The notes under the pieces were generated by a model. That model was not told the origin of the DNA. It saw nothing but the letters and a program-made list of their open reading frames with translations, and did no database searches. Below are positions 46,854-62,142 of a stretch of 64,000 nt of DNA, piece after piece. The stretch is from a virus: the IMG/VR virus record IMGVR_UViG_3300019776_000296, positions 3,762-67,761 of that record. The stretch is one strand, 5' to 3'. The position numbers and the translations under genes are program-made. Numbering within the stretch: the stretch's first letter is position 1; each line of letters starts with the position of its first letter.

Positions 46854-46903
46854 ACTCGCAGGTCAGAGCCTTAATTAGTTAGACTAACTAACTAATTTTA
46901 GAC

Positions 46904-46950
46904 AAGAAAAATCCCCCGATCCGGTTCTCACCGGGCGGGGGATTTCTCTG
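46904..46950. terminator. Bidirectional terminator between the convergent arms
   Basis: agaaaaatccccc...gggggatttctct. Confidence 0.8.
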
Positions 46951-47878: not shown

Positions 47879-47960
47879 GCGAGATACAGTCTCGCGGCTG
47901 GCCTTGGCAGGCAAAAGGGAGAACAGCAATGCTGCTCTCCCCCCAACCGGCCAAGCACGG
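47879..47960 (-). ncRNA. Long-hairpin processing element LH1
   Basis: UUGGCCGG-UU-GGGGGGAGAGCAGC/GCUGUUCUCCCUUU-UG-CCUGCCAA, then a GCGAGA/UCUCGC hairpin. Confidence 0.55.
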
Positions 47961-48146
47961 TTACTCGTTCAGCAGGTTCTCCGCACGCTCAAGCTCTTCA
48001 AGCTCAGTCATGGCCGCAGCCAATTGCACTGCGCGAGAATTGATTTCGCGCTTCAGCGTTTCGATCCTCTGCTTCTTTGCACGCATCTGCTGATCCAGCA
48101 TCACGCGCAACTGGGCTACCGAATAGCCACCAATGTTCTTAACCAT
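47961..48146 (-). CDS. Small coiled-coil protein
   Basis: SD GAGAGG before ATG at 48146. Confidence 0.6.
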   Translation of the reverse strand: MVKNIGGYSVAQLRVMLDQQMRAKKQRIETLKREINSRAVQLAAAMTELEELERAENLLNE

Positions 48147-48435
48147 TCGGGAACCTCTCGTTGATGACTGCACCGATCTTGCTGGCAAGCCTGGTGGCTG
48201 CCTCGACTTCCTGTAAAGCTCTGTGCAACCAACCATTGGCCGCACTCAGTTCATCGATTAACTCCTCAAACGTCATGTGTTCCAACGTCATTCACCTTCC
48301 GTGTAATGCATCATGGGGCAGTTCAGCGAACCAGGCGTGTGGTAGTAGCCGCACAGATCGTGGTAGTTGGCAGCATCATCGTCTGCCACATCCCACCGGC
48401 CACCAGTTTCTAGTGCCCAGTTGTACTGGTGATCG

Positions 48436-48846
48436 TCATTCCACATAGCTTGTGCCCCAACCACTTGCCTCGACATTCCAGTCATCAGCAGTCATCACGG
48501 CCAAGCCAATCAGCGGCCCTTCATCACCGAACTCCTCAGAGAAACGGCGAAACCTGTTGGCACGCTTGATGTTCACCGGGCACAACAGTTCGTTAGCTGG
48601 CATCTGATACAGCTTCACCTCACCCTCCAGCACATCATCCAAGATGATGTAGTGGAAGTCAGACGTGGTAGCCACAATGGCACGCTTCATGCCATTGAGA
48701 GGCGAAAACTCCAGCGGCTCAAGCTCTTTGTAGCAATCGCCAACTCTGAAGTTCAGGTCGATCCACGTCATCTCGCCGCGTTCACGGCTGGTGACCCACT
48801 GCACTTTTCTACCATCTTCGAATTCGATGGTGATAGTTGCACTCAT
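48436..48846 (-). CDS. Hypothetical protein
   Basis: ACACAAGGGAAGAGG leader before ATG at 48846. Confidence 0.65.
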   Translation of the reverse strand: MSATITIEFEDGRKVQWVTSRERGEMTWIDLNFRVGDCYKELEPLEFSPLNGMKRAIVATTSDFHYIILDDVLEGEVKLYQMPANELLCPVNIKRANRFRRFSEEFGDEGPLIGLAVMTADDWNVEASGWGTSYVE

Positions 48847-48896
48847 ACGTCCTCTTCCCTTGTGTTGTGTTGTGCCCCAACAGAATTGCTGGGACA

Positions 48897-48963
48897 GCGT
48901 GTGCATGGCGGGAGTCGAACCCGCAGCACCAGGACGAATCCTGTTGCAGCCCAATGCATGCAC
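48897..48963 (-). ncRNA. tRNA-like element TLE1
   Basis: GUGCAUG/CAUGCAC acceptor; GCGGG-UUCGACU-CCCGC T-arm; D region reduced to CAUUGGGC; tail ACGC. Confidence 0.8.
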
Positions 48964-48971
48964 CCCCGGCG

Positions 48972-50051
48972 TTAGCCGATAGCGATCAGTTCAGGACGAT
49001 CCAGAACCTTCGCCACCGCAGTCAGCATGGTGCTGTCAGCGGCTGCGAATTCACCACGGATGGCGCGGTCATAGACCCGCTCCAACCGCGACACCGAACG
49101 AACGGGTGCGTAGTGATGCTGGTAGGTATTGAAAGCCTGCACAGCACCAAACACGGTGCCCTTCCACTGCTCCGACATTGGATCGGACATGTAGACGGCA
49201 TCGATTGCCTCCCTACGGTTTTCGGTCTTGGTGACCTTCGCCTTGGTTGAACCTTCCGGCGCGGGAGGTTCGATGATGTCCAGCACCTCAATCCATTTGG
49301 GGCGCGACAGCTTGATGCCCAACAACTCGTGGACGTAGTCGGTCATGTCATTGGCCGACTTGTCCAGAATTGAAAGTGCCTGCCGCACACCGGAAATGGT
49401 GTCAACGGACATCGACTGAGACGTGTGCTTGACCTTGAACTGCCGGTTAGCAGCCCGTGCCTCTGCCTTCAGTGCGGTGAACATGTTGTCGCACTTCAGG
49501 ATTCGATTGAAGGCACTGTAGCTAGTAGCTATGGAGCCATCCATCGATGTTGTGCAGAGGAGGAACGGCCAGAAATCCAGGCCGCTCCTGCCGTCGTGCA
49601 TCGTTTCCTCAAGACCGATCTCGACGGCAGCCTGTGCGCCGTTCTTCAGGGTCAGTGCCGACAGGACTCTTAGCGTGTCCTGCAACACATTTGAGATGTA
49701 ACGAATGAGCCACGTCTTGTAGTCATGGATACGGTAGGACGATTTGTGCCTACCCAGTTCCGTGCCATCGTCGGAACGCACAATGCCTTGGGCACCATGT
49801 GTCACAACAACTTTCACCGGAGTCATCACGCCGTCCTTGCCAATCGGGATGTAGATGTCTGCATCCTTCTTGCTGCACGGGATGAAGTTCCCGGTGGGAA
49901 CTGAGATCGCTTCGAAGTTGAACAGCAGTCGCTCGACTTCGCCTACCGGGATCGGGCCAGGGAACGTCGGGAGTGACCCGTCTGTCTGTCCGATCCAACC
50001 GTTGCGCTTCTCAGTGTTGCCAATGATTGCGCGTGCGATTTGTGTACCCAC
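48972..50051 (-). CDS. DUF932-family protein
   Basis: GIVRSDDGTELG...Y, PFLLCTTSMDGS, RILKCDNMF, GTVFGAVQAFNTYQHH motifs; likely GTG start at 50051. Confidence 0.8.
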   Translation of the reverse strand: MGTQIARAIIGNTEKRNGWIGQTDGSLPTFPGPIPVGEVERLLFNFEAISVPTGNFIPCSKKDADIYIPIGKDGVMTPVKVVVTHGAQGIVRSDDGTELGRHKSSYRIHDYKTWLIRYISNVLQDTLRVLSALTLKNGAQAAVEIGLEETMHDGRSGLDFWPFLLCTTSMDGSIATSYSAFNRILKCDNMFTALKAEARAANRQFKVKHTSQSMSVDTISGVRQALSILDKSANDMTDYVHELLGIKLSRPKWIEVLDIIEPPAPEGSTKAKVTKTENRREAIDAVYMSDPMSEQWKGTVFGAVQAFNTYQHHYAPVRSVSRLERVYDRAIRGEFAAADSTMLTAVAKVLDRPELIAIG

Positions 50052-50082
50052 TTTAGTGGATTCCCTTCTCTTCCTTGTGTTT

Positions 50083-50190
50083 TGGTGCAAACCCTGCACC
50101 GGGGGTACTGCAACTGGCGACTGAGCCAGCAGGACACGGCACCGTGCTGTCACCACGGTGCCGTGCTACAACCCGCTCAGTCATACCCCC
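50083..50190 (-). ncRNA. Long-hairpin processing element LH2
   Basis: GACUGAGC...GCACGGCACCGUG/CACGGUGCCGUGU...GCUCAGUC, then a GGUGCA/UGCACC hairpin. Confidence 0.6.
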
Positions 50191-50255
50191 AATTTACAGA
50201 GGGGGTGAGTCTTGCTCAGACGAGCAACACTCAAGGGTTGTTGTGGGACAACGGA

Positions 50256-50888
50256 TTACGCCTCTTCGATGTTGTCGATGTTGTAATCCTCGTAGTACGA
50301 GATATCGATTTTGTCGTAGATGTAATCCGACAGGTTGTTGTCGATCTCTTCTCGCGCATTGTCTTCCGACGTTGCCTCGACTTCGACCTCAACAACGTAG
50401 GTGACGTTCACGACAGCAGTGAAAGATCGCTTAATCCCTTCCAGGCCAAGCTCTTCCATCACCTCGCTGAGTTCTTTGCGCTTGTCGTCATCATCCAAAT
50501 GGGTGACGGCCCACTCAGCGAGTGCATCCTGGGCATCTCGCTTGAAAGCGTTGAACTGATCTTCCAAGTTAGAGCACCTACGATTCGCGCTTTGGTAGCT
50601 GATCCGTTCTGCGCCAACAGCTTCCACGAGCAACTGGCTCACACCAGTCAGTGTCATGGGAGTGTTGGTGCTGTCCAAACGGATTCTCCAATCCGTTTCT
50701 TGATCAGCGCGAACTGGTTGCACCATCTTCGCGCTGCTGTTGAAGACGTAGGTCATAACGAGAGAGTTATGGGTGTCGGTCTTACCCGTCCAGATACCAA
50801 ACTCCTCTTCGCCCCTCCATGAGGTGCGAGCCAACTCGACTCCAGCGACAGCATTTTCGACCAGATTGGCGAAAGTGATTGTCTCCAC
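50256..50888 (-). CDS. Hypothetical protein with acidic C-terminus
   Basis: 210 aa; SD GAAGGGA; GTG start. Confidence 0.7.
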   Translation of the reverse strand: METITFANLVENAVAGVELARTSWRGEEEFGIWTGKTDTHNSLVMTYVFNSSAKMVQPVRADQETDWRIRLDSTNTPMTLTGVSQLLVEAVGAERISYQSANRRCSNLEDQFNAFKRDAQDALAEWAVTHLDDDDKRKELSEVMEELGLEGIKRSFTAVVNVTYVVEVEVEATSEDNAREEIDNNLSDYIYDKIDISYYEDYNIDNIEEA

Positions 50889-50940
50889 GGTGATTTCCCT
50901 TCATTGTGTGCCGCAATTGAACCCGCTTGCGGTGAGCGGT

Positions 50941-51014
50941 ACTGCTGTTGACTATCTGAGCCAACAAGAAAGCGACAGTGCGAAACATGCACTGCCGCAA
51001 TCCAATCGGTTCAG
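50941..51014 (-). ncRNA. Long-hairpin processing element LH3
   Basis: CUGAACCGAU...GCGGCAGUGC/GCACUGUCGC...UGUUGGCUCAG; the 3' arm can refold as UGUUGGCU/AGUCAACA. Confidence 0.55.
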
Positions 51015-51215
51015 CTAGCGGAGTCGATCACGGAACAGTGCGTGCCACCTGATCCACTCCTCTAAGCCTCTTGCATCCCACAACGGCATGCCATCGATGA
51101 CGCTATGCGTCGGCGGCGGCGTGCCATCGTAACGTCTGCGCCAGTTCGCAACTGCCGCAGGAGTAACACCCAGGACATCCGCGATATGGGCACCGCCCCA
51201 AAGCATTTCGCTCAT
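51015..51215 (-). CDS. Small HTH DNA-binding protein (excisionase/MerR-like)
   Basis: AHIADVLGVTPAAVANWRRR...P.P...PLW. Confidence 0.8.
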   Translation of the reverse strand: MSEMLWGGAHIADVLGVTPAAVANWRRRYDGTPPPTHSVIDGMPLWDARGLEEWIRWHALFRDRLR

Positions 51216-51439
51216 GGCTGCGCCCAACCAACACATCTGGTTGTTACCGGATTGCACTGCACCGGGCCGTTAGTCCACCCTCCGTAGTAGCCGGGGATAT
51301 TCCAGGTGTCCTGCAACTGCCCGTTCCACGGAGCAGGCTGACAGCCACTCTGGTTCATCACCCCCTGGCACGGAGAAGCAGAACTGACCGGCGCACAAAC
51401 AAACGCCAAAAGCATTGCAACACAAACGATTACACGCAT
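51212..51439 (-). CDS. Small secreted Cys-containing protein
   Basis: Signal peptide MRVIVCVAMLLAFVCAPVSSA; four Cys in the mature part. Confidence 0.65.
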   Translation of the reverse strand: MRVIVCVAMLLAFVCAPVSSASPCQGVMNQSGCQPAPWNGQLQDTWNIPGYYGGWTNGPVQCNPVTTRCVGWAQP

Positions 51440-51594
51440 CAGTAACCCACCTCATCAAGCAACGCTTCCGCTTTGCGGATCAGGTACTGGATCGCCTCAC
51501 GCTCGTCTGCGCTGTTCCCGTTGCGCGACATCTCCCTGACATCGTCAAGGGCTGTACGCAAAGAGATCAATGCATCTTCGCTGACTTCCTCCAT
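51439..51594 (-). CDS. Small hypothetical protein (51 aa, below ORF-track cutoff)
   Basis: MEEVSEDALISLR...; SD GGAAGGG; stop overlaps the next ATG. Confidence 0.6.
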   Translation of the reverse strand: MEEVSEDALISLRTALDDVREMSRNGNSADEREAIQYLIRKAEALLDEVGY

Positions 51595-51644
51595 GATCTT
51601 CCCTTCCAATTATGTTGCGCCACACCATGATTGGTATGACATCA

Positions 51645-51712
51645 ACGTGTGCCAACTGGGAGTCGAACCCAGAGCAATCAACCCGAAAGTTGTTGCAGCC
51701 CAATGCAAGCAC
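51645..51712 (-). ncRNA. tRNA-like element TLE2
   Basis: Imperfect GUGCUUG/UUGGCAC acceptor; CUGGG-UUCGACU-CCCAG; CAUUGGGC; tail ACGU. Confidence 0.72.
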
Positions 51713-51719
51713 CCAATGA

Positions 51720-52247
51720 CTAGACCCGACGCGGCTCAGCCGAATCGATCCAGTCCAACCGCCACGGGAACAAATCCCGGTAGCAGTCAGCGCACACATC
51801 AAACTTCACACGATGCGAGGCATGCGTGACGTAGATGATGTGGTCAACCTGTAACTCGTAACGATCACACGGATCGCACTTGTCACCACAGTTCATGCAG
51901 ACCAGGTAGTCGGCATCGAACTGAATTTCGTTGGGAGTCTTACTCATTCATTCACCTCCCTTCGACTTGATCATGTTGGCAACAGCCAGAGCCAGCTTCA
52001 CTGGCCCTTCCTTGACTGTCATCAGATGAAGACCTGACTCGTGGTCAATCCACCAATGCCCGTTGTCGGACAAGCGAATTCGGTGATCTGGATTCTCCAG
52101 GTCAGCCTCGCCACGATGAGCAGCACTCCACACCAGCAGCACCGGATCGCCAGTGCCACCGTTGTCACGCACCGGCCTGCAATACAGGCCATGCTGCTGA
52201 CGCAACAGATGGGTGGTGTTCATCAGGATGTTCAAATCGTTTCTCAT
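51720..52247 (-). CDS. Two hypothetical genes (51948-52247 and Cys-rich 51720-51947)
   Basis: SDs present; adjacent stop and start. Confidence 0.6.
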
Positions 52248-52293
52248 TGGTTCCCTTCCAATTGTGTTGCACCCCAACGGTGTTGGGGTATCA

Positions 52294-52362
52294 ACGTGTG
52301 CATGGTGGGAGTCGAACCCACAGCAAAAACTTTTGAAAGTCATTGCAGCCCAATGCATGCAC
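52294..52362 (-). ncRNA. tRNA-like element TLE3
   Basis: GUGCAUG/CAUGCAC; GUGGG-UUCGACU-CCCAC; CAUUGGGC; tail ACGU. Confidence 0.8.
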
Positions 52363-52368
52363 TACCAC

Positions 52369-52859
52369 CTAGTCGGGATCGCGACGAGGCGGCTCACCAG
52401 CCCACTCAGCAGGAGTCATGCTCCACCTCCACGCCAAAGGGTTAGGAGGCAGGTCACAGCCCTGCACAGGGCCAAGCCGTACCGCCTCATCCTGACAGGC
52501 AAGGCAGCACGGATTCCCTTGTGGGCCATACAGTCTCGCAAACAATGAATTCATCTTGCGAGCCATCAGTTGCTCCGCGAGGTGACTGCGTGATGGATCA
52601 GTTCAGCCAATCGCGTTGCGTCACACCAGTATCTGTGAACATCCTCCGCAGCACGCTGCTCGTAGCCGACGTGCATGATGCGAAAGCCATCGTCCAGGTC
52701 ATTGACGGCATCCCAGATGACTGCCGTCTCGTACTTGACCTTGGTGTCCACATACCAGGGAGGCAGAGCGATTGTCGAAACAGTCACTGTGCCAATGGAT
52801 TCCAGTTCAAACTCGTTGTGCCGAATCTTGACCGGCATAACGGATTCGTAATCAAACAT
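52369..52859 (-). CDS. Two coupled hypothetical genes (52566-52859, 52369-52566)
   Basis: SD GAAGGGAAG; TGATG coupling. Confidence 0.6.
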
Positions 52860-52899
52860 GGTGTGTGCTTCCCTTCACTGTGTTGTGTATTGCATTGCT

Positions 52900-53324
52900 G
52901 CACAACGGAATTCAATTCGGACAATCGAAAAGCCTTGGAAACTGTGAAGTTCCAAGGTTGTTATAACCCACTGCCGTCGCGAGACAGGGGGGGTCGGACT
53001 CACGAATCCGGCTTCCGGTATGGCAACCGTCAACCACAGGTCGAGGTGGGTAGGAAGCTGGGCTAACTACCCGCCCCGAATTGGTGACGGCAGACATAGT
53101 CCACCCCCTGGTTAGGTGGCCTAACTACCACCTGGAAGTAGACAGACTGATCCCCTAAATCGAATGGCGAAATTTTCGAATCCCGTTGCGCCGGTTGTCG
53201 ATTCAACCGTGACCGGGCACGCGCACCGCATGCCCAGACATGGACGAACCGAATCACGTTGTGCCACAAGAGAATTGAAATGTGGTGGGGCGCAACCACT
53301 TTCGCGGCACGCCCCACCACCACG
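52900..53324 (-). ncRNA. Candidate multi-stem structured RNA region
   Basis: ~425-nt gap with several strong stems and possible pseudoknots (see findings). Confidence 0.4.
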
Positions 53325-53525
53325 TCAGCACCTAGCGGTATCACCAGAGATGTTGTGCGACAACGCATTCCGTGTTACCGCCTGTGAAAGGTGGTGGCAC
53401 AGTTCATACGTTGCCTCATACAACGCTTCAGAAGTCGCGTCACCATCTGAGGTGACGTGAGCGTCAGCGTATCCCTGGTGGCATTCGATGGCACGATTGA
53501 GCGCATCGATGAGTGCCTGAGACAT
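53325..53525 (-). CDS. Hypothetical protein
   Basis: ACACAAGGGAGAGAAC leader. Confidence 0.65.
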   Translation of the reverse strand: MSQALIDALNRAIECHQGYADAHVTSDGDATSEALYEATYELCHHLSQAVTRNALSHNISGDTARC

Positions 53526-53565
53526 GTTCTCTCCCTTGTGTTTTCAACTGCCCCAACATGGGACA

Positions 53566-53634
53566 TGGTGTGCCGCAGTGGAATTGAACCACCGTCACCC
53601 TGAAGGGTGATACGCACCAATTGCGTTGCGGCAC
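53566..53634 (-). ncRNA. tRNA-like element TLE4 (cloverleaf, ACCA end)
   Basis: GUGCCGCA/UGCGGCAC; ACGCA-AUUGG-UGCGU; UCACCC-UUCA-GGGUGA; GUGG-UUCAAUU-CCAC; ACCA. Confidence 0.8.
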
Positions 53635-53641
53635 TACACGA

Positions 53642-54040
53642 TTACTTGGACTTCGACGGGTGGTAGTCGCCACCGTCCCAGTGACCGCGCTTCATCATGG
53701 CATCTGCCATGACCCGAATGACCTTGTGCGCCTTGACATTTCGCTTAACCAGGTGGCCTTCACCCTGGTTGTCCAGCGTGTAAACGTCATACCGTCCCGG
53801 TGCCACGTCAGTGACCACCAGGTCGAACACGCCGTCATAGTATTCACGCTGCGAAATGCCTTGCGTCACAACAACTTTGCCGCTCTTGCCGGGGATGCAT
53901 GCCCTGGAAAGTGTTGCGACAGTTGCGGTTTCGCCACGGAAGTCCGTCACCGTATCGCCGGGGAAGACCTGCTTGCCGGTCTTCTCGTTGAAGGCGAACA
54001 GAGCGGGACGCTTGACGAAAGTGATTGCGTTGCTTGCCAT
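53642..54040 (-). CDS. Hypothetical protein
   Basis: SD AGGGA; PGDTVTDFRGE motif. Confidence 0.65.
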   Translation of the reverse strand: MASNAITFVKRPALFAFNEKTGKQVFPGDTVTDFRGETATVATLSRACIPGKSGKVVVTQGISQREYYDGVFDLVVTDVAPGRYDVYTLDNQGEGHLVKRNVKAHKVIRVMADAMMKRGHWDGGDYHPSKSK

Positions 54041-54116
54041 TTCAGATTCCCTATCATGTGTTGTGTTGTGCCACACCAGGATTGGTGCAGCCTGCTCCAG
54101 CCGGATGGCCGGGGCA

Positions 54117-54180
54117 TTGTGGACTGTGGGACGTTTGAAGCCCTACCCCACAACAGCCGAAAGCTGTTGCGGCACAGTCC
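54117..54180 (-). ncRNA. tRNA-like element TLE5
   Basis: GGACUGUG/CACAGUCC; single long arm; GGGC-UUCAAAC-GUCC; ACAA. Confidence 0.75.
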
Positions 54181-54195
54181 ATTCGAGATGTAGTG

Positions 54196-54513
54196 CTAGA
54201 TGCGGTACTGGCTACCGGCTTCGAAATCGCCTGCCAGCCAACGGATTACGGTCTCCCGCTTACGGGCCGTCTTGCCGTCGAGCATCGTCCACTCGCCACC
54301 AGACCAGCGGTCTGCGCCGGATGGCCTGACGTGCAACCATGCGGCAGTGATGCCGCACCGGCTGCTGTAGACAACCGTCACCCGGTATCGCGCCAGCTTT
54401 GTGGTCTGGTCGAAGGTGACCTCCATGCCGCCACGGAATTCGGTTGTGTCCCAACCGTTTTCGTTGGCGGTGCTGTTGATCATGGCCGGGGTGAAGTTAG
54501 CCAATGCACTCAT
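54196..54513 (-). CDS. Hypothetical protein
   Basis: SD GGGAG before ATG at 54513. Confidence 0.65.
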   Translation of the reverse strand: MSALANFTPAMINSTANENGWDTTEFRGGMEVTFDQTTKLARYRVTVVYSSRCGITAAWLHVRPSGADRWSGGEWTMLDGKTARKRETVIRWLAGDFEAGSQYRI

Positions 54514-54571
54514 TTCTCTTGTCTCCCATGCGTTTTGAATCATCAACTGCCACACCGGAATTGGTGCGGCA

Positions 54572-54646
54572 TGGTGTGGCTGGAGGAATCGAACCTCACC
54601 AGCATGACGCTGGCACCTCACCCCAAACACGTTGGGGCGCAACCAC
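54572..54646 (-). ncRNA. tRNA-like element TLE6 (ACCA end)
   Basis: GUGGUUG/CAGCCAC; two internal arms; GAGG-UUCGAUU-CCUC; ACCA. Confidence 0.8.
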
Positions 54647-54656
54647 ATTCGAAGAG

Positions 54657-55379
54657 CTACTTGCTCTTCTTCTCCTTCTTCACGGAGAACAGCACAGACT
54701 TCCGACCGTAGATGCACAAACCGCAACGGGCACAAGCACTTCCGCGCTGATCGATCAGCGGCAGTGCCCCGTTATTCTCCGGACACCTTGTGGCACCAGG
54801 GAATTCGGCCTGAGCATCAGCGAAAGTCTCGCCAACGTAGGCGACGTTAATGCCTTGCGCCGCAAGGTGTTTCGCCGCTGTGATGTTGTCGCGGTCACCG
54901 CTGAAGTACAGCCCAAGGTTGGGCAGGTTCAGCTTGTGCAGGTACACGGCAGAACCGGGCACCCTGGTGTACACCCAGAACTGTGTGTCCTGGTGTGCCG
55001 CAACAACTTTCGACCAGGCAATCATGTAGTCGGTGCTGAAGAAGTCACCGTCCCAATGGATTCGGAAAAGCTTTGGCGCAGAACGCTTCTCGCATTCGGC
55101 CTCGAAATCCGTGATCATCTGGTCGAGCATGTCGAACATCTCGCTGCGTGAAATGCCTTGCAGTGCATCCCAATTGCGCTTCAGCAGTGCGGAGACTGCG
55201 GGGCGCAACCGTTCAAGCTTGCCTGCGTAGCAGATCAGCGCACAGAACGCGGTCTGTGCAATGCACGAGAACGCTTCACCGGAGGGGATGCCAAAGCTGT
55301 TGGCTACCAACGGCTTTGTGCCAGCCTTGTTCACGGCAGAAGCGACCTTAGTGTCATTACTGCGCTGGAGATTGGACAT
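54657..55379 (-). CDS. GP88-like (radical-SAM-like Cys cluster) protein
   Basis: SFGIPSG...C...C...CYA, FRIHWDGDFFS, FWVYTR, CARCGLC motifs. Confidence 0.75.
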   Translation of the reverse strand: MSNLQRSNDTKVASAVNKAGTKPLVANSFGIPSGEAFSCIAQTAFCALICYAGKLERLRPAVSALLKRNWDALQGISRSEMFDMLDQMITDFEAECEKRSAPKLFRIHWDGDFFSTDYMIAWSKVVAAHQDTQFWVYTRVPGSAVYLHKLNLPNLGLYFSGDRDNITAAKHLAAQGINVAYVGETFADAQAEFPGATRCPENNGALPLIDQRGSACARCGLCIYGRKSVLFSVKKEKKSK

Positions 55380-55439
55380 GTTGTCTTACCTCTTCCCTTG
55401 TGTGTATCTTCAACTGCCGCAACGGGATTCGTTACAGCA

Positions 55440-55497
55440 TGGTGTGCCGCAGAGGTTTCGAACCTCAGCGTCACGCTAGCCAAAAGGCTTGCGGCAC
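55440..55497 (-). ncRNA. tRNA-like element TLE7 (58-nt miniature cloverleaf, ACCA end)
   Basis: GUGCCGCA AGCC-UUUU-GGCU AGCG-UGA-CGCU GAGG-UUCGAAA-CCUC UGCGGCAC ACCA. Confidence 0.85.
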
Positions 55498-55509
55498 TAG
55501 TGGTTTGGC

Positions 55510-55836
55510 TTAGAGGTAGGTGAATTCGTAACGGATGCCACGAGATTCGGTGTCGTCCAAGCCGGTGTTGATGTAGAACTCGATCAGCCTGTCGTCATCG
55601 ATGGCAGCCGAAAAGTATTCGGCCACAGTGCTTTTCGTACCGGACAGGTAGTTCATGCACGTCCACAGCAGCGACTCGTAGTCGCTGGTGTAGCTGTGTT
55701 CGTAATACCTTGCGCCGCAATCGATGTCGATGCCACAGGCGAACTCTTGCATGGTCACGATGCCACGCCGCACGGTGTCGTGCAGCGCAACAACGTAGCC
55801 AAGGGCATCGTTGCCGTGAAGAATCTTTGTGATCAT
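55510..55836 (-). CDS. Hypothetical protein
   Basis: AAACACAAGGGAGAGAAC leader. Confidence 0.65.
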   Translation of the reverse strand: MITKILHGNDALGYVVALHDTVRRGIVTMQEFACGIDIDCGARYYEHSYTSDYESLLWTCMNYLSGTKSTVAEYFSAAIDDDRLIEFYINTGLDDTESRGIRYEFTYL

Positions 55837-55879
55837 CGTTCTCTCCCTTGTGTTTACAACCTGCACCCGGTCGGATGCA

Positions 55880-55960
55880 TTGTGCGACTGGAGGATTCGA
55901 ACCTCACCGCCACCAGGACGGCACCTCACTGCATCACGAGATGTGTTGCAGCGCAGTCGC
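55880..55960 (-). ncRNA. tRNA-like element TLE8
   Basis: GCGACUG/CAGUCGC; two arms with an AGGU linker as in TLE6; GAGG-UUCGAAU-CCUC; ACAA. Confidence 0.8.
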
Positions 55961-55967
55961 TTTCGAG

Positions 55968-56210
55968 CTAGACCACCTTGCCGTTACGGATGTTGGCGTA
56001 CCACTTGCGGTTCGTCCACGGGTTCGGCCCGACGATCACGTCAGACGACGTGAGTTGCGGGTCATCGATGCCGTAGAACGTGCCGCGATTGTTGATCGCC
56101 GACGTGTCTTCCAGACGCACGGAATCCGGTGCGTAGCTTACGAATTCGCGGAATGCCTTCTTGCTTGCGAACTCGCCGCCGGATGCGTCGGTAGCGTAAA
56201 GGTTTGACAT
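55968..56210 (-). CDS. Hypothetical protein
   Basis: SD GGGAG; SKKAFRE...VGPNPW..RKWYA motif. Confidence 0.7.
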   Translation of the reverse strand: MSNLYATDASGGEFASKKAFREFVSYAPDSVRLEDTSAINNRGTFYGIDDPQLTSSDVIVGPNPWTNRKWYANIRNGKVV

Positions 56211-56231
56211 GGTATCTCCCAATTGTGTTGC

Positions 56232-56314
56232 GCCACATACCGTGTGGCCCGGCCTGCCCAGTAAGGCAAGGACACAGCCAGACGAATCTGGCTGTGCCCC
56301 AACGTCACTGGACG
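56232..56314 (-). ncRNA. Long-hairpin processing element LH4
   Basis: CCAGUGA-CGUUG-GGGCACAGCCAGA-UUCG-UCUGGCUGUGUCC-UUGCC-UUACUGG. Confidence 0.7.
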
Positions 56315-56554
56315 TTACTTGCGTCGGAGAACAGGGTTGACGTTAGGCACATGTGCCACAACGATTTTCAGCTCCACGCAATACCCTTCAGGGCAAAGGG
56401 ATTGCATGTGGTCAACAGCGTTGCGAATGTGTAATGCGGTGTCGCGCTGCCGTTTTGCCACGCCGGTCATACCCTCACGCTCAGCCCGGTCTGCCTCGCA
56501 TTCAAATGCGACGACAGTGTCCATCGAATTGATGTGGATTGAGTACTCAGACAT
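56315..56554 (-). CDS. Hypothetical protein
   Basis: SD GGGAG before ATG at 56554. Confidence 0.65.
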   Translation of the reverse strand: MSEYSIHINSMDTVVAFECEADRAEREGMTGVAKRQRDTALHIRNAVDHMQSLCPEGYCVELKIVVAHVPNVNPVLRRK

Positions 56555-56601
56555 GTTGTCTCCCAATGTGATTCACTACTGCGCTACCAGGTAGCAGCGC
56601 A

Positions 56602-56667
56602 TGGTGGGTTGCCGGGGATCGAACCCGTCACAGTGTGAGCCGCCCGTAATACGTTGCGACACAACCC
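56602..56667 (-). ncRNA. tRNA-like element TLE9 (ACCA end)
   Basis: GGGUUGU/GCAACCC; CGGG-UUCGAUC-CCCG; ACCA. Confidence 0.78.
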
Positions 56668-56673
56668 ATTTTG

Positions 56674-56832
56674 TTACCGGCGTGCCCAGTCGAGCCACCA
56701 CAAGGTGGCCCACGAGTACGGCCCGATAAGCAGGACGAACAGTGCGCCGTTCCAGATCACAGCGAGGTTGGCAAGGCCAACGAACGCCGTAATGGCAAGC
56801 AGCACAACAAGTATCAACTTGAGTGTGTTCAT
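56674..56832 (-). CDS. Small membrane protein (52 aa, below ORF-track cutoff)
   Basis: MNTLKLILVVLLAITAFVGLANLAVIW...; SD GGAG. Confidence 0.6.
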   Translation of the reverse strand: MNTLKLILVVLLAITAFVGLANLAVIWNGALFVLLIGPYSWATLWWLDWARR

Positions 56833-56875
56833 CTTTCGTTTCTCCATCCTTACTGCTGCACCGTGATTCGATGCA

Positions 56876-56932
56876 TGGTGCTACTGCGGGAGTCGAACCC
56901 TTGCCGCCCGTAATACGTTGCGGCACAGTAGC
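56876..56932 (-). ncRNA. tRNA-like element TLE10 (ACCA end)
   Basis: GCUACUG/CAGUAGC; one arm UGCCGC/GCGGCA; GGG-UUCGACU-CCC; ACCA. Confidence 0.78.
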
Positions 56933-56940
56933 TTTCGAGA

Positions 56941-57240
56941 TTAGACGAGATCGTGGTGCAGGTACTCTTCGTCGTGCCCTTCACCGTCGAGGAACTGAAC
57001 CCGAATGCGGGTATCGATGGTCACCTTGCGGCTGTCGAGCAGGCTGAAAAGCGTTGCGGCACAGTCACTGTCGAGGTGGCTCTGGAAGATGACCCACTCA
57101 CGGTTGAAGTAGGCGATCTCGTGGTATTGCGTTGCCCCGTAACGTGATTCGGGGCTGCCTACCTGAATGAAGCTGTGCGACAACGCACGCTCCACACCAT
57201 CGACCACGACAGTTCCTGTGCTGATCTGTGTTGCCTTCAT
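56941..57240 (-). CDS. Hypothetical protein
   Basis: SD GGGAG before ATG at 57240. Confidence 0.65.
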   Translation of the reverse strand: MKATQISTGTVVVDGVERALSHSFIQVGSPESRYGATQYHEIAYFNREWVIFQSHLDSDCAATLFSLLDSRKVTIDTRIRVQFLDGEGHDEEYLHHDLV

Positions 57241-57261
57241 CTCTTGTCTCCCAACTACTTT

Positions 57262-57352
57262 CGCTGCATGCCGTGCAGCACGGTCTGCCAATGAGGCAAG
57301 GACACAGGCAGGTACATTGCTGTAACTGCCTGTGCCCCAACGCCATTGGACG
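57262..57352 (-). ncRNA. Long-hairpin processing element LH5
   Basis: CCAAUGG-CGUUG-GGGCACAGGCAG...CUGCCUGUGUCC-UUGCC-UCAUUGG; covaries with LH4. Confidence 0.7.
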
Positions 57353-57592
57353 TTAGAGATAGCTTGCGGAGTAGACGAACCCGTCGCTGAACGCATCACC
57401 GGCGACCTTGCCATGCTTGCGTTCGTAGTTCTGTTCGTCGCGCTCCAGGTCATACCCGTCACGCCACGCCGCATTCACACCAGCTTTGAAGTGCCGCAAC
57501 AGGTTTCGGTCTTCCAGGTACTGGGCGTAGCCGCCGTCGTCACCGGGGAATTCCTCCAGCATGCGCTGCACATCTGCGATTGTGTATGCCAT
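57353..57592 (-). CDS. Hypothetical protein
   Basis: ACACAAAGGGAG leader. Confidence 0.65.
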   Translation of the reverse strand: MAYTIADVQRMLEEFPGDDGGYAQYLEDRNLLRHFKAGVNAAWRDGYDLERDEQNYERKHGKVAGDAFSDGFVYSASYL

Positions 57593-57614
57593 TTCCGTTA
57601 TCTCCCTTTGTGTT

Positions 57615-57683
57615 TGGCTTGTCTCTTCAGTGGGTAGGTAGCCAACCTGTCCCAGACCCGTTGCAACGCAACGGGTTTCGACA
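57615..57683 (-). ncRNA. Type II hammerhead ribozyme HH1 (canonical core, GUC site)
   Basis: UGUC GAAA CCCGUUGC-GUU-GCAACGGG UC|UGGG..AGGU-UGGCU-ACCU..CCCA CUGAAGA GACA AGCCA; loop I UGGCU pairs with the 3' AGCCA. Confidence 0.92.
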
Positions 57684-57687
57684 TTAT

Positions 57688-57975
57688 CTAGTGGCCGCAA
57701 TCCTCAGCGGGTTGCAGCCAGACGCTCACCATGTCGCGGTGGATGCCCTCCGTGCTGCCGTTGTCAACCGTCAACATGCCGTTGACGAAAAGGCTTGCAC
57801 TGGAAGGGATTCCGAACATCTCCAGCACCGTGGTGACAACGTCATTGGCAGACATGGCCTGTCCCGCAACGCCGCCAATGATGAAGGACGGCGTGTCGAG
57901 AATGGTTTTCTGCCAACCGTTTTCGATCACGGTGCGAAGGATGCCCACGACATGGTTTCCGTAGTAAGTGGTCAT
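57688..57975 (-). CDS. Hypothetical protein
   Basis: CACAAAGGGAGAGAAC leader. Confidence 0.65.
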   Translation of the reverse strand: MTTYYGNHVVGILRTVIENGWQKTILDTPSFIIGGVAGQAMSANDVVTTVLEMFGIPSSASLFVNGMLTVDNGSTEGIHRDMVSVWLQPAEDCGH

Positions 57976-57997
57976 TTCTGTTCTCTCCCTTTGTGAT

Positions 57998-58066
57998 TGG
58001 CTTGTCTCGTCAGTACGGCGGGAGCCACCCAACCGCAGTCCCGGTGCGTTGCACCGGGATTCGACA
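57998..58066 (-). ncRNA. Type II hammerhead ribozyme HH2 (variant U15.1-A16.1, GAC site)
   Basis: UGUC GAAU CCCGGUGC-AAC-GCACCGGG AC|UGCGG-U-UGGG-UGGCU-CCCG-CCGUA CUGACGA GACA AGCCA. Confidence 0.85.
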
Positions 58067-58070
58067 GCTA

Positions 58071-58400
58071 CTAGCTGTAGTAGCGTCCGACCACAACCCG
58101 CTCGTAATCCGGTGTGGTGCAACCGAATTCGATGGGCCACCGCACCAGGACACCGCTGAAGAACGAGTCGGTCTGGATGCCGTCCCAACGCTGCAACGAA
58201 TCCGGCACGCCAGCCGCGAAATGCGTTGGCACATAGCTGAATTCGTTCACGTCGTAGAAGCTGCCCAGGTACTGGAAGATACGCGGCGAGAAACGATCCT
58301 CGCCCTCGACGTAGTCGAACCAGTGCTGCTCAGCGACCGGCACCTGATCAACCGAAATCAGTTCGCGGGGAACATTATTGGTGATGATGGTGATGGACAT
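58071..58400 (-). CDS. Hypothetical protein
   Basis: ACACAAAGGGAGAGAAC leader; WDGIQTDSFFSGVLV motif. Confidence 0.7.
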   Translation of the reverse strand: MSITIITNNVPRELISVDQVPVAEQHWFDYVEGEDRFSPRIFQYLGSFYDVNEFSYVPTHFAAGVPDSLQRWDGIQTDSFFSGVLVRWPIEFGCTTPDYERVVVGRYYS

Positions 58401-58447
58401 TGTTCTCTCCCTTTGTGTTTGGGTCTGCCTCACCGGACGGTGAAGCA

Positions 58448-58505
58448 TTGTGCGACTGCGGGATTCGAACCCACGCTGCCCGGTAATGCGTTGCAGCACA
58501 GTCGC
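58448..58505 (-). ncRNA. tRNA-like element TLE11
   Basis: GCGACUG/CAGUCGC; arm UGCUGC/GCAGCG; UGGG-UUCGAAU-CCCG; ACAA. Confidence 0.78.
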
Positions 58506-58512
58506 TTTCGAT

Positions 58513-58836
58513 CTAGGCCGAACGTGTCACCAGGTACAGCCTGCCCTGGTGGCGCGAGGTGGTGACGGAGTACTTAACCGGCGGGATTGTCCACTGCCCG
58601 TTGGCATGCCACGCAATTGGCGTGGCGTAGCTGTAGACAGCGAAGAAATCCGTTGCCGCAGAAGCGGTTTCGAAGTCGCCGTGGTACTCGTCAGGCAGCT
58701 TGCCGACGCTGGTCGGATGCGACCAACCACCACCAGTGAAGATGGGGCGAGTCGAACCGAAAACCGTTCCGTTGCAATTGAATTCGCGACGGTCACGGAT
58801 CAGCGTGGGGATGCTGCTGAGGGTTGCCTTGATCAT
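58513..58836 (-). CDS. Hypothetical protein
   Basis: SD GGGAGG; VYSYATPIAW...YSVTTSRHQ motif. Confidence 0.7.
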   Translation of the reverse strand: MIKATLSSIPTLIRDRREFNCNGTVFGSTRPIFTGGGWSHPTSVGKLPDEYHGDFETASAATDFFAVYSYATPIAWHANGQWTIPPVKYSVTTSRHQGRLYLVTRSA

Positions 58837-58858
58837 TTCTCTTACCTCCCAATAGGTT

Positions 58859-58927
58859 TGGCTTGTCTCGTCAGTACGCCGGGAGCCACCCGAACGTAGT
58901 CCCGTTGCTAGGCAACGGGATTCGACA
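58859..58927 (-). ncRNA. Type II hammerhead ribozyme HH3 (variant U15.1-A16.1, GAC site)
   Basis: UGUC GAAU CCCGUUGC-CUA-GCAACGGG AC|UACG-UU-CGGG-UGGCU-CCCG-G-CGUA CUGACGA GACA AGCCA. Confidence 0.85.
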
Positions 58928-58929
58928 AA

Positions 58930-59334
58930 CTAGTCGAGCTTCAGATCAGCGGGGAACGTGAACCCGCCGACATCACTCAAGCAGTCGGACATGAAGATCA
59001 GCGAGTCGAGGTCATCGAAGTCGGGATGGTCACTGAAGTCGAAATCGATTATCTCGCTTACGTTTTCGCCATCCGTGCTGTACCAGAAGTCATCGTCGCG
59101 GTCTGCTGTGGCGAGGTCGATATCCTGTTGGATACCTTGCATCTCATCCATTGCCGCGACGAAAGCCTCTGTGTGAGCAGTGATTTCGTTCTCGTCAACG
59201 TCGATCTCGTCTTCCTTGTAACCAACCAGCGTGACCAGTTCTTCGATGGCGAAGATTGCCGCCTGAAGGGCTGTCTCCCAACGCATTTCAGCAGTTGCTG
59301 GCATGCCGTTGATGTAGCCGCTGTTGTTGATCAT
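58930..59334 (-). CDS. Highly acidic protein (possible DNA mimic)
   Basis: 134 aa with 34 D/E versus 4 K/R by hand count; SD GGGAG. Confidence 0.7.
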   Translation of the reverse strand: MINNSGYINGMPATAEMRWETALQAAIFAIEELVTLVGYKEDEIDVDENEITAHTEAFVAAMDEMQGIQQDIDLATADRDDDFWYSTDGENVSEIIDFDFSDHPDFDDLDSLIFMSDCLSDVGGFTFPADLKLD

Positions 59335-59389
59335 GTTGTCTCCCAATGTGTTACACGGAACCGCCGTGCCGGTCTGCCTCAGTGAGGCA

Positions 59390-59449
59390 ACGTGGACTGT
59401 GGGACGTTCGAAGCCCTACTCCCCAACGAATTACGTTGGGGCACAGTCC
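59390..59449 (-). ncRNA. tRNA-like element TLE12
   Basis: GGACUGUG/CACAGUCC; CCCCAACG/CGUUGGGG arm; GGGC-UUCGAAC-GUCC; ACGU. Confidence 0.78.
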
Positions 59450-59461
59450 CTTTTGAACTAG

Positions 59462-59788
59462 TCAGCACCTAGCGTCGTGCCAGCCTTGAGCGAGTTTCTC
59501 TGCTGCCGCAAGGGTTTTCACCGTGCGCTGGTGCAGAATGATTGTCTTGCCGTGATGCTTGCCTGCCACCTTGTTCTGACGGCGGCGTGCCTGTCGTCCG
59601 TACCGTGCATTCGGATCACCGAAATGCGCTGTGAGAGAGCGACTTTGGAGGTACTCACGGGCAGCCTTGGGGTCGCTGATACGTTCCAGCACGGTGAATG
59701 TCTCACCGCAGTAGATGATGTAATCGACGTTGTGCCCCTTGGCATCTCGCACAATGCCCTGGACGCGCCAGTTCAATGTGTTTGACAT
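59462..59788 (-). CDS. Hypothetical basic protein (first clear gene of the leftward region)
   Basis: AAACACAAAGGGAGAGAAC leader before ATG at 59788. Confidence 0.65.
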   Translation of the reverse strand: MSNTLNWRVQGIVRDAKGHNVDYIIYCGETFTVLERISDPKAAREYLQSRSLTAHFGDPNARYGRQARRRQNKVAGKHHGKTIILHQRTVKTLAAAEKLAQGWHDARC

Positions 59789-59820
59789 GTGTTCTCTCCC
59801 TTTGTGTTTGGGGTGGTTAC

Positions 59821-59897
59821 CTGCCGGGTAGCAGGACAGGAAACAGGGTGCATTGCTGCACCCTGTATCCCGCTCAGACACCCGAAAGTGCCCGAAA
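59821..59897 (-). ncRNA. Long-hairpin element LH6
   Basis: GCGGGA-U-ACAGGGUGCA-GCAA-UGCACCCUGU-U-UCCUGU, then UGCU-ACCC-GGCAG. Confidence 0.5.
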
Positions 59898-62142
59898 CAC
59901 AATGGAATTGGGAAAGAGAGTACGCAGACAACATGAACCCGCCGCCAGTGGTATCACCGCACCTAAGCAAGCGTTTGGGAGAGCATGACGTACCGGCAGT
60001 TCAGCGGTTATCTGCGTTCGAATCACCTTGTCGCACACGGCTTTTGCTACTGCGCCTACTTAAACCAGCGGGTACAAACTTGCTGGCACCACGTTGCGTT
60101 GCAACGGGTTTCGGGTATCTGCCAAGCAGCTACTTACCTGGGTGATTCTCTCTGTTTTGGATTGCCTGCCAACGCTTTTGGGCGTTCTGGGCTGATTCGC
60201 TGGAAGAGGCGGGCTGCATGTACTCGTAGTATCTCCCGTTGGGAGACTTGCGAATTCAAGACCTAGCGTCTCAGTCACTTTGTCTCGCTTAACCTTTCCC
60301 ACTCCGTCCAGGTCAATCGACAATGTGCTGAAACATTCGGCACCGCACTGTAGATCTACTTCCGCACCGCCAGAATGCGACTGGCGCAACGCACGTCGAA
60401 ATCCCGTGCGTGCCTGCCGTGATTGTCCTGCCCCATGCCGCCTTCGACGTGATGCCGCGTGCGGGTGGATGGCCGGGTCTGCCGGTCTGGGTGCTGCTCC
60501 GCTGATTCAATCACGCCAGCACCCTGGTAGCAAGCACCCTATTTCCGCAGGTCAGAGGGTGTTTTTGAAACCTAATTTCGGGCACGTCAGATACGAAATC
60601 GTGAAAAGCGTTGGTAACAAACAACTTTCGAGTCCTAGCCGAACGCCCACCAGGACGAACGCCAACCCTGTTAGACACCCATATGAAACACGTTGCACCG
60701 CAAAGGATGTCGCTGGTTTGGCGCTAATCAGTGCAGGTCAAAGCGGTACTTGCATTGTGAAGCAACACATTTTGCCTGGTCACATCCCGTAGCAAACATA
60801 ATTCGGCACACCGCGGCTCTGGCGCCCCTTGAATCGGCGCAGGTCAACCAGGGTGAGCGACGAAACTCTGAGAATATCCGGCTAACTTGCGACCAGCACA
60901 CTTAATTTGTTTGCTGGTCGCACTTCCGAAATCGGACAATTGCCTGGTCACATACGGTGTGGGGTATTCGGCCAGCTAATTTTTACCCGTGCGTCAACCG
61001 TCGAGTGACATTGCGCCACAACAACTTTCGTCAGCGGTGCCCGATTGGGCTAATTTCTTAGGAAGTTTGCTGGGTAAATTTTCCACGAGTTTCCTAGCAA
61101 AATGCCAGCAAATTTTTGATAGAAACGGACATGTGTTGTGGCACAACAGATTTCGAGCGTCTACTCGCACAAATTGGTGCCGACACGCCGTGTCCAGCAA
61201 ACTTTAAGTTACCGAACGCTGATCGGCCAATCTGAAAGTGACTGTGCGCCAATGGATTTCGGAGATAGTTAGCACATCTCACTATGTGTGATTGTTGAAT
61301 CCGCAACATCTAGCTGGCCTAACAAAGGTAAGCCTTACCTAACCTGCTACCAACTGGTTGGTTGGATACGTCACTAAACCGACTAATGGTACAACCGTTG
61401 TGCCGCAACAACATTCGACCAAACATGCCACCTCAGCACGCCGAAAGTTGTTGTCTCCCTTTGTGACGGCACAACCCCCTATACCTAGCTGTACTAATCA
61501 CTTCTGTAACATCCGACCCCCGAAAAGTTTGCCCGAAACGCAAACACTTTCAAACACCCATTGGGGCACAACAACTTTCGCGACGTGACCAGGGAAAAGA
61601 AAGTTCTTGCGGATGCAACAATGTTTGCTAGACCACCCGAAACCCACCAAACCACCCCCGCGAAAAGCGTTGCGGCACAACAACACCATTTCAAAGTTGG
61701 CCGCTACCAACACATTTCAAAACACGCCTCGACGGCCACCAGGTCACCAGGACACGCCACCACGAGATGCGTTGCGCCACAACAACCCACAAAACACGCC
61801 CCGAACGAAACCCGTTGCGGCACAACAAAGCCGACAACCTCGAAACCGTGAAAACTGTTGCGTGCCAACAACTTAATAACCCACTCCCGGCCACCAGGTC
61901 GGCCCAAACATGGCCTGCCCCAACGCCATGCCATCCGCACCACCAGGACAGGCCACTACCGGCACCGTTCCCAATGGAATTCCCGGCCACCACCAACAAC
62001 ATTGCGCCGCAACGTAACTCGCCGCAGCCCGGTTGAATTGCGGCACGCCGCAACGGAATTCACCGCCACCTCAGACCCGCATCTCAGACCGCCGTCGCGG
62101 CCACCAGGTAGCACCGTCTCGCACAGTTTCGGAAGGCCATCC

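Follow-up and report, generated by a model that had tools for sequence, protein, structure and literature searches.

Conserved intergenic RNA hairpins with two mutually exclusive folds in the small-gene operon of a distant relative of Cluster M phages

We analyzed six long hairpins (LH1 to LH6) encoded in a small-gene operon of the virus with IMG/VR record IMGVR_UViG_3300019776_000296, using positions 3,762 to 67,761 of this 67.8-kb record; these 64,000 nucleotides are the window to which all positions below refer. The window phage is a predicted siphovirus of actinobacteria, with Pfam matches to an SPP1-type portal, a tail terminator, a mycobacterial two-transmembrane-segment (TMS) holin, WhiB, ERF, and DnaB, and a G+C content of 52–59% in 2-kb windows. 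The operon is a minus-strand gene run of about 30 small reading frames that spans from about 60.1 kb down to 47.2 kb, and most of its genes have no Pfam family. The small frames are each preceded by a conserved leader, in which AACACAA is followed by GGGAGA or GGAAGGGA and then by the start codon. A single promoter-like site (60172-60145) lies upstream of the first operon gene, promoter-like sites are not enriched within the operon (3 found vs 6.5 expected, with no per-gene promoters), and a hairpin with a U-tract closes it (Table 1); we therefore read the small-gene region as one long transcript. Nearly every spacer of the operon carries one structured element, which is tRNA-like, hammerhead-like, or a long hairpin. 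When positions 55000-60000 were compared with GenBank phages by megablast, no match was returned.

The six hairpins were proposed in an earlier note as candidate ribonuclease (RNase) III-type sites whose 3' arm can refold after a cut. All six are present on the minus strand, the sense strand of the gene run, and each folds better than expected from 200 dinucleotide shuffles of its own sequence, with z-scores from -2.73 to -5.97. LH4 and LH5 share the core consensus that the note had drawn from them, and both the sequences and the alignments show that a lower-stem G-C pair in one is A-U in the other; the ranges the note gave for these two do contain the long hairpins but also take in a separate second hairpin in the leader. 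In all six, the 3' arm, taken from the internal junction onward, can form a hairpin of its own that, by eye, is followed by CAG, which overlaps the last stem bases in LH2 and LH6. This 3'-arm hairpin takes up the 3' strand of the lower stem, either as its loop or as part of its stem, so the two folds are mutually exclusive in all six, where the note had said most. The minimum-energy fold of LH5 already shows the 3'-arm alternative. LH6 has an extra helical segment; rather than separating two genes, it belongs to the first gene's 5' leader and has no reading frame upstream. In the fold of 59789-59905 (minus), the RBS-adjacent leader bases AAACACAAA (RBS, ribosome-binding site) pair with a complementary run upstream of the LH6 hairpin, and the first gene's leader may in this model stay masked as long as the structure is neither cut nor opened.

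Relatives of the operon were identified through its DUF932 protein. An alignment of this protein from the window and from locus L003 (85% identical) found L004/L005, L006, L007, and L008 in IMG/VR, and the window protein is 59–66% identical to those of L006-L008 and of the Cluster M phages PegLeg, Bongo, Reindeer, and Rey; for Cluster M mycobacteriophages, these and others, the range is 61–66%. The comparison has 28 records at 60–80% protein identity. Relatedness to Cluster M is also indicated by the GP88 family protein of the window phage (matching at 6e-49); used as a probe, this protein confirmed no relatives. In L006-L008, which are Cluster M-type genomes, nearly all spacers of the equivalent operon carry a long hairpin of the same plan. 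We built a covariance model, R1, from 24 aligned examples (MAFFT alignment A2), with the structure written from individual folds, and searched 185,214 bases with it. At E up to 1, R1 gave 50 matches. Of these, 43 fall on the operon strand, with 5 in the window, 2 in L004 (a close relative), 14 in L006, 16 in L007, and 6 in L008; the other seven are weak echoes on the opposite strand, at 15–22 bits vs up to 77.6 bits on the operon strand. The window matches are LH1 to LH5 (21.5–34.2 bits, E 0.02 to 3e-5). Of the four hairpins that the note had described as following the plan more loosely, these include LH1, LH2, and LH3; LH6 was not found by R1 at E up to 1. The element at L004:2779-2860 is the ortholog of LH1 and differs from it by two compensatory changes in the lower stem.

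R1 also finds 14 copies in Bongo, 14 in Rey, and 12 in Nanosmite, all on the gene strand and between annotated small genes; they are situated among the leftward small genes at the right genome end, just upstream of an RBS-bearing conserved leader. The more distant loci L009-L011 gave no R1 matches, and the exact LH4/LH5 core pattern has no match in IMG/VR. Six IMG/VR stretches, each in a contig of 80–84 kb, were the only matches to a strict sequence pattern for the element, and R1 matched none of 30 unrelated hammerhead-bearing phage loci, from which the hairpin family looks to be confined to this phage lineage. In metagenome contigs, a protein-pattern scan and a tRNA-like DNA-pattern scan were both without matches. 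The plan of two structures, a long hairpin and a 3'-arm hairpin, recurs in 43 of 43 family members, and the six hairpins are members of a conserved intergenic RNA hairpin family of Cluster M-type actinobacterial phages.

The anatomy of the module was read from the 43 operon-strand rows of alignment A3. The module begins at the stop codon of the upstream gene or a few bases past it. Its lower stem has 7 base pairs (bp) and is closed by C4-G95, with C4 present in 41 and G95 in 42 of the 43 elements. The junction above it consists of G12.U86, G13-C85 (or U.G), A14 mostly opposite G84, and G15.U83, with mismatches at columns 11/87 and 14/84; G12 is kept in 34, G15 in 37, U83 in 39, and U86 in 37 elements. 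The best-conserved positions (C4, G95, G15, U83, and U86) are all paired, and the unpaired columns 11, 14, 84, and 87 vary. The upper stem comprises 10–16 bp of free sequence, and the helix as a whole comes to 20–27 bp (7 + 2 + 10–16 pairs), to which the junction contributes two single mismatches and two G.U wobbles. Past the lower stem come 4–14 bases that base-pair with the 3' strand of the junction, and the next RBS follows after these. The junction occurs in two variants: GGGAGG with CUGCUG in Cluster M, and G-N-UUGG with CUUG-Y-C (e.g., GAUUGG/CUUGUC) in the window, in L004, and in a few Cluster M copies. In 21 of the 43 elements, the stop codon of the longest upstream frame occupies one fixed site of the lower stem, as C-UGA, C-UAG, or C-UAA, and in 20, including LH1 to LH5, it is 3–16 bases upstream of that stem; the remaining two are at -34 and +23, the latter probably from a wrong choice of frame.

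Both folds carry a signature of selection. For the long hairpin, 87.3% of the cells of A3 are paired, compared with 62.1% after shuffling, and the covariation score is 0.675 vs 0.238 (0 of 500 shuffles). When the pairing partners were slid by 1–3 columns as a control, pairing fell to 38–45%. Changes on both sides are seen in 23 of the 25 pairs, and the plain MAFFT alignment A2 likewise has 73.8% of its cells paired vs 58.5% in shuffles (0 of 500). The long hairpin is thus selected. For the 3'-arm hairpin, we folded the 3' side of the junction together with the 3' strand of the lower stem and 14 flanking bases of each element. The mean energy was -7.33 kcal/mol for the native sequences, -4.59 kcal/mol with the flank shuffled, and -4.90 kcal/mol with flanks swapped between elements; over 42 distinct elements this corresponds to a z-score of -9.0, with the native mean reached by 0 of 300 shuffle sets. 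On the 5' side, the mirror construct gave a null result (z -1.0; 51 of 300). The 3'-arm hairpin is therefore selected too, and on the 3' side only. By eye, its stems vary in sequence and keep their pairing, as in UGGUC/GACCA, UGCUGC/GCAGCA, UACUG/CAGUA, CUGUAC/GUACAG, and GCUC/GAGC.

The energies of the two folds were compared by forcing the closing pair of the long form and, separately, by blocking the 5' strand. The long form beats the best 5'-strand-blocked fold by a median of 6.7 and a mean of 6.4 kcal/mol, and the two are within 2 kcal/mol of each other in only 3 of the 43 elements. By these calculated energies the pair is not an equilibrium switch; with the long form so clearly preferred, refolding would require that the 5' strand be cut away or occupied.

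The other spacers of the operon hold elements of two further kinds. About 13 tRNA-like elements were counted by eye in the spacers between 47.8 and 59.5 kb (minus), four of which were scored by Rfam (Table 1) and none of which is called as a tRNA by ARAGORN. They have an acceptor stem and a T-arm without a normal anticodon arm; an encoded CCA follows several of them, and downstream of every one come a hairpin and GCAG, in that order. They are likely RNase P/Z cutting marks, a form of tRNA punctuation within a phage operon. A MAFFT alignment of the regions downstream of LH4, LH5, and the tRNA-like element at 59.4 kb displays a common motif, imperfectly aligned, and a search at 3 mismatches for a module common to these three returned only the query. 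Immediately 3' of the DUF932 gene, a tRNA-like element in the window and L004 is replaced by a hairpin in L006 and L007.

Three type II hammerhead-like elements occupy three successive spacers (57593..58929, minus). Two are matched by the Rfam hammerhead model below its gathering score, and the third, recognized by eye, has no Rfam hammerhead match. The two matched elements have U15.1-A16.1 in place of the usual A-U, and the third has A-U, so this pair covaries. Perreault et al. 2011 (PMC3088659) describe a natural hammerhead variant of the U15.1-A16.1 type that retains cleavage at a reduced level. A pattern of 19 bases drawn from the tail of the hammerhead was found in 30 IMG/VR stretches (L019-L048), all 30 of which contain complete type II hammerheads, positioned 10–35 bases upstream of an RBS and start codon; judged from these stretches, a hammerhead before a gene is a widespread phage module.

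Table 1 Structured elements of the small-gene operon, with positions in the window. The z-scores first given for LH1 to LH6 are from 200 dinucleotide shuffles of each hairpin.
Feature	Position	Strand	Remarks
LH1, R1 match	47885-47958	minus	29.6 bits
LH1, long hairpin	47903-47955	minus	z -3.56; 1 of 200 shuffles folds as well
LH1, 3'-arm alternative hairpin	47901-47912	minus	
LH1, separate leader hairpin	47879-47895	minus	
LH2, R1 match	50092-50183	minus	30.9 bits
LH2, long hairpin	50119-50182	minus	Upstream of DUF932 gene; z -4.80; 0 of 200 shuffles as good
LH2, 3'-arm alternative hairpin	50114-50129	minus	
LH3, R1 match	50935-51017	minus	21.5 bits, E 0.02
LH3, long hairpin	50956-51014	minus	z -2.73; 2 of 200 shuffles as good
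LH3, 3'-arm alternative hairpin	50946-50966	minus	8 pairs
LH4, R1 match	56233-56314	minus	31.3 bits
LH4, long hairpin	56256-56313	minus	z -4.51; 0 of 200 shuffles as good
LH4, 3'-arm alternative hairpin	56255-56268	minus	
LH4, separate leader hairpin	56232-56248	minus	
LH5, R1 match	57264-57352	minus	34.2 bits
LH5, long hairpin	57288-57349	minus	z -4.06; 0 of 200 shuffles as good
LH5, 3'-arm alternative hairpin	57286-57298	minus	
LH5, separate leader hairpin	57264-57278	minus	
LH6, related hairpin	59825-59884	minus	z -5.97 (second fold -5.64); 0 of 200 shuffles as good
LH6, 3'-arm alternative hairpin	59820-59835	minus	
tRNA-like element	48900-48963	minus	Rfam tRNA, 29.2 bits vs gathering score 29
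tRNA-like element	52297-52362	minus	Sub-threshold Rfam tRNA/tRNA-Sec match
tRNA-like element	53569-53635	minus	Sub-threshold Rfam tRNA/tRNA-Sec match
tRNA-like element	54574-54648	minus	Sub-threshold Rfam tRNA/tRNA-Sec match
tRNA-like element	59.40-59.45 kb	minus	By eye
Hammerhead-like element	58856-58927	minus	Rfam Hammerhead_II, 26.7 bits; gathering score 37
Hammerhead-like element	57996-58066	minus	Rfam Hammerhead_II, 25.9 bits; gathering score 37
Hammerhead-like element	~57600-57687	minus	By eye; aligns with the other two, 86% mean column identity
Canonical hairpin and U-tract, operon end	46903..46945	minus	Fold -41.5 kcal/mol, z -5.74

The sharing of one type of spacer by the hairpins, the tRNA-like elements, and the type II hammerheads is suggestive of RNA cutting. 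Site-specific processing of some kind, whether by an RNase III-type enzyme, by another nuclease, or by the RNA itself, is somewhat more likely than not. We tentatively favor, at slightly below even likelihood, a model in which the hairpins are RNase III-type cut sites that subsequently refold. RNase III recognizes a near-continuous duplex, and at the R1.1 site of phage T7 it cuts on one side, at an internal loop; the near-continuous 20–27 bp duplex with its mismatched junction, together with this precedent of a one-sided cut, is what suggests an enzyme of this type. In the proposed mechanism, the intact transcript would fold into the long hairpin, which would serve as the substrate of an endonuclease specific for double strands, host RNase III being the likeliest. 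Like the T7 R1.1 site, the junction would be cut in its 3' strand, and by analogy with the T7 internal loop it could confine cutting to one strand. The upper stem would remain on the upstream mRNA as a 3' hairpin, and the freed 3' arm would snap into the short hairpin at the extreme 5' end of the downstream mRNA. Both new ends would then be shielded from exonucleases and from 5'-end-dependent attack by RNase E/J, a shielding effect of 5' hairpins that is established in other bacteria, and the long mRNA would be split into single-gene pieces with protective end hairpins. When a type II hammerhead cleaves, the upstream RNA ends in stem III and the downstream RNA begins with stem I, and cutting the long hairpin in the 3' strand of its junction would yield a product pair of the same kind. 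Of the cut-then-refold switch advanced in the earlier note, the structural half is strongly supported by a conserved, 3'-specific refoldable arm across 43 elements, and the cutting half draws its support from context: the neighbors in equivalent spacers, the lack of U-tracts and per-gene promoters, and a helix whose length and conserved mismatches resemble those of RNase III substrates.

Several observations weigh against cutting by RNase III, or against the strength of the structural case behind it. Upper stems range in length from 10 to 16 bp, and a cut site set by distance from the loop would shift accordingly between copies. The scanned phage proteins include no RNase III or other RNase domain, which would leave the host as the source of the enzyme. 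Alignment A3 was fitted to the model and includes close orthologs (L006 and L007) as well as the seven opposite-strand rows, and two of the 43 elements (LH1 of the window and L004:156) are poorly aligned by the model. Only 13 of the 43 alternative hairpins stand out singly (with at most 10 of 200 shuffles as good), so the 3'-arm signal is collective. Finally, the stop codon lies inside the lower stem in 21 of 43 elements, which opening by ribosomes, without a cut, could explain equally well.

In such a ribosome-operated structure, a ribosome terminating in or next to the lower stem would melt it and the 3' arm would refold, with the closed base of the hairpin keeping the stop codon beside the next RBS and thereby tuning re-initiation or insulating cistrons in a manner resembling shunting. 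The fixed stop position, and its location 3–16 bases upstream in another 20 elements, fit this account, as does the need for an occupied 5' strand if intact RNA is to refold; moreover, the hairpin, the acceptor stem of the tRNA-like elements, and the open stem II of the hammerheads would each bring two ends together. However, it leaves unexplained why intact hammerhead cores and tRNA-like elements bearing a T-loop and CCA occupy the same position; LH6 has no upstream reading frame, the stop codons located 13–34 bases upstream in a few elements are probably out of the ribosome's reach, and the short hairpin has no evident effect on the RBS. We regard this explanation as unlikely. It is improbable, too, that the hairpins are passive, acting as barriers to 3' exonucleases, as weak terminators, or as DNA-level signals such as cassette boundaries or protein-binding sites. 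Intercistronic hairpins commonly stabilize upstream segments, and LH3 was flagged as terminator-like in its upper stem, but the conserved 3'-side hairpin has no role in passive models. That the hairpins act only as terminators, the outcome the earlier note had named as counting against its proposal, is disfavored: LH3 is the only one of the six so flagged, one of the six has a U-rich tail, terminator-like sites in the region number 8 vs 15.4 expected, and the true U-tract terminator is the one at the operon end. The many G.U pairs and the strand bias of the R1 scores argue for action at the RNA level, on the sense strand, rather than in DNA, and the stem sequences are too free for protein operators.

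If the hairpins are cut, they are most likely cut by a protein enzyme, and this need not be RNase III: it could be encoded by one of the many unannotated small genes of the phage (most operon genes lack a Pfam family), or a single-strand enzyme of the host, RNase E or J, could act beside the hairpins. The junction sequence is indeed kept beyond the needs of a duplex at G12, G15, U83, and U86. No nuclease domain was seen among the proteins scanned, though, and the two junction variants keep the pairing rather than the sequence, which favors recognition of shape, and we consider this option quite unlikely. Cleavage by a new class of self-cleaving RNA, which the earlier note had raised in view of the neighboring ribozymes, would make the wobble and mismatch junction a protein-free active site, with refolding of the 3' arm locking the products apart. 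Hammerheads do reside in neighboring spacers, new ribozyme classes have reportedly been found beside known ones (by Weinberg and colleagues, in 2015), and the junction is conserved. However, the known self-cleaving classes considered were the hammerhead, twister, twister-sister, pistol, hatchet, hepatitis delta virus (HDV)-like, hairpin, and VS ribozymes, and Rfam ribozyme families match none of the six hairpins at E up to 10 and none of their relatives at E up to 1. The helix is almost continuous and lacks a junction of several helices, and good conservation is confined to paired positions; this alternative is very improbable. A pseudoknot joining both folds, of the HDV-like or H-type, was also considered and rejected on topological grounds, as the loops crossing the helices would have zero length.

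Among known systems, T7 R1.1 offers the closest parallel to the favored RNase III-type model. Both are intercistronic hairpins of about two turns in a polycistronic phage transcript, with upper and lower stems split by a mismatched junction, and the upstream RNA would retain a 3' hairpin here as well if the cut is on the 3' side. The two differ in that the phage group and the host phylum are unrelated, the junction consists of two G.U wobbles and two single mismatches here and of a large asymmetric loop in T7, cleavage is predicted here, and the present family has a conserved second hairpin formed from the 3' arm; we know of no such hairpin at T7 RNase III sites. To our knowledge, it is for the RNase III of E. 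coli alone that the rules on blocking base pairs near the cut are established.

In Cluster M mycobacteriophages, stem-loops located upstream of the repeats CR3/CR4 are a published observation (Pope et al. 2014, as cited in PMC7953290). The R1 copies in Bongo, Rey, and Nanosmite connect these stem-loops to LH1 to LH5, which match the same model. The window phage is nonetheless a distant relative, as reflected in the divergence of its DUF932 protein and in its G+C content; it has the junction variant CGNUUGG with UUUGCC and only 5–6 hairpins, most of its spacers holding tRNA-like elements or hammerheads instead. In the literature searched, which excepts the original account of Pope et al. 2014, no function, cleavage, or second hairpin was found for the Cluster M stem-loops, PMC7953290 being the one relevant paper. 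Clustered hammerheads flank single genes of phages and prophages according to Perreault et al. 2011 (PMC3088659), where processing of long phage transcripts into single-gene mRNAs is suggested; like the present hairpins, these type II clusters lie just upstream of an RBS, with a hairpin expected at each new end. The hairpins here differ in having no hammerhead core and no Rfam ribozyme match. In the tRNA punctuation and t-elements of organelles, tRNA-shaped elements between coding regions are cutting marks for RNase P/Z, to which the tRNA-like elements of the window operon, in the same type of spacer as the hairpins, are comparable; the difference is that a phage operon here mixes three kinds of mark.

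Within the literature searched, the family-wide evidence for two exclusive conserved folds and the asymmetry of the second fold are new, as is the observation that tRNA mimics and hammerheads stand in for most of the hairpins in a distant relative. Conserved, mutually exclusive folds make a clean case for programmed RNA refolding, whatever the mechanism. If the favored model of cutting and refolding is true, one long early transcript would be punctuated into single-gene mRNAs, with a single cut creating two protected ends, and tRNA mimics (of the RNase P type), hammerheads, and hairpins would be three unrelated cutting marks that are interchangeable in evolution. The Cluster M stem-loops would gain a function that can be tested in the tractable setting of M. 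smegmatis and its phages, and the module would be a compact, naturally occurring part with which genes in synthetic actinobacterial operons could be insulated. Should the self-cleaving reading be true instead, an operon in which tRNA-like elements and hammerheads are already combined would gain a fourth type of cutting device.

Two further features of the region were observed. One spacer, at 465 bases (52860-53324, minus) much longer than the rest, folds locally into strong hairpins, and Rfam gave no match to it at E up to 10. The palindromic motif GTTGYGSCNCAA has 41 strand matches in the window vs 0.44 expected. About 20 of its sites are within 2.5 kb to the right of the small-gene operon (61000-63500, both strands), in what looks like an operator-like repeat array, and the motif is also part of some leaders in the operon (48869, 53258, and 54632).

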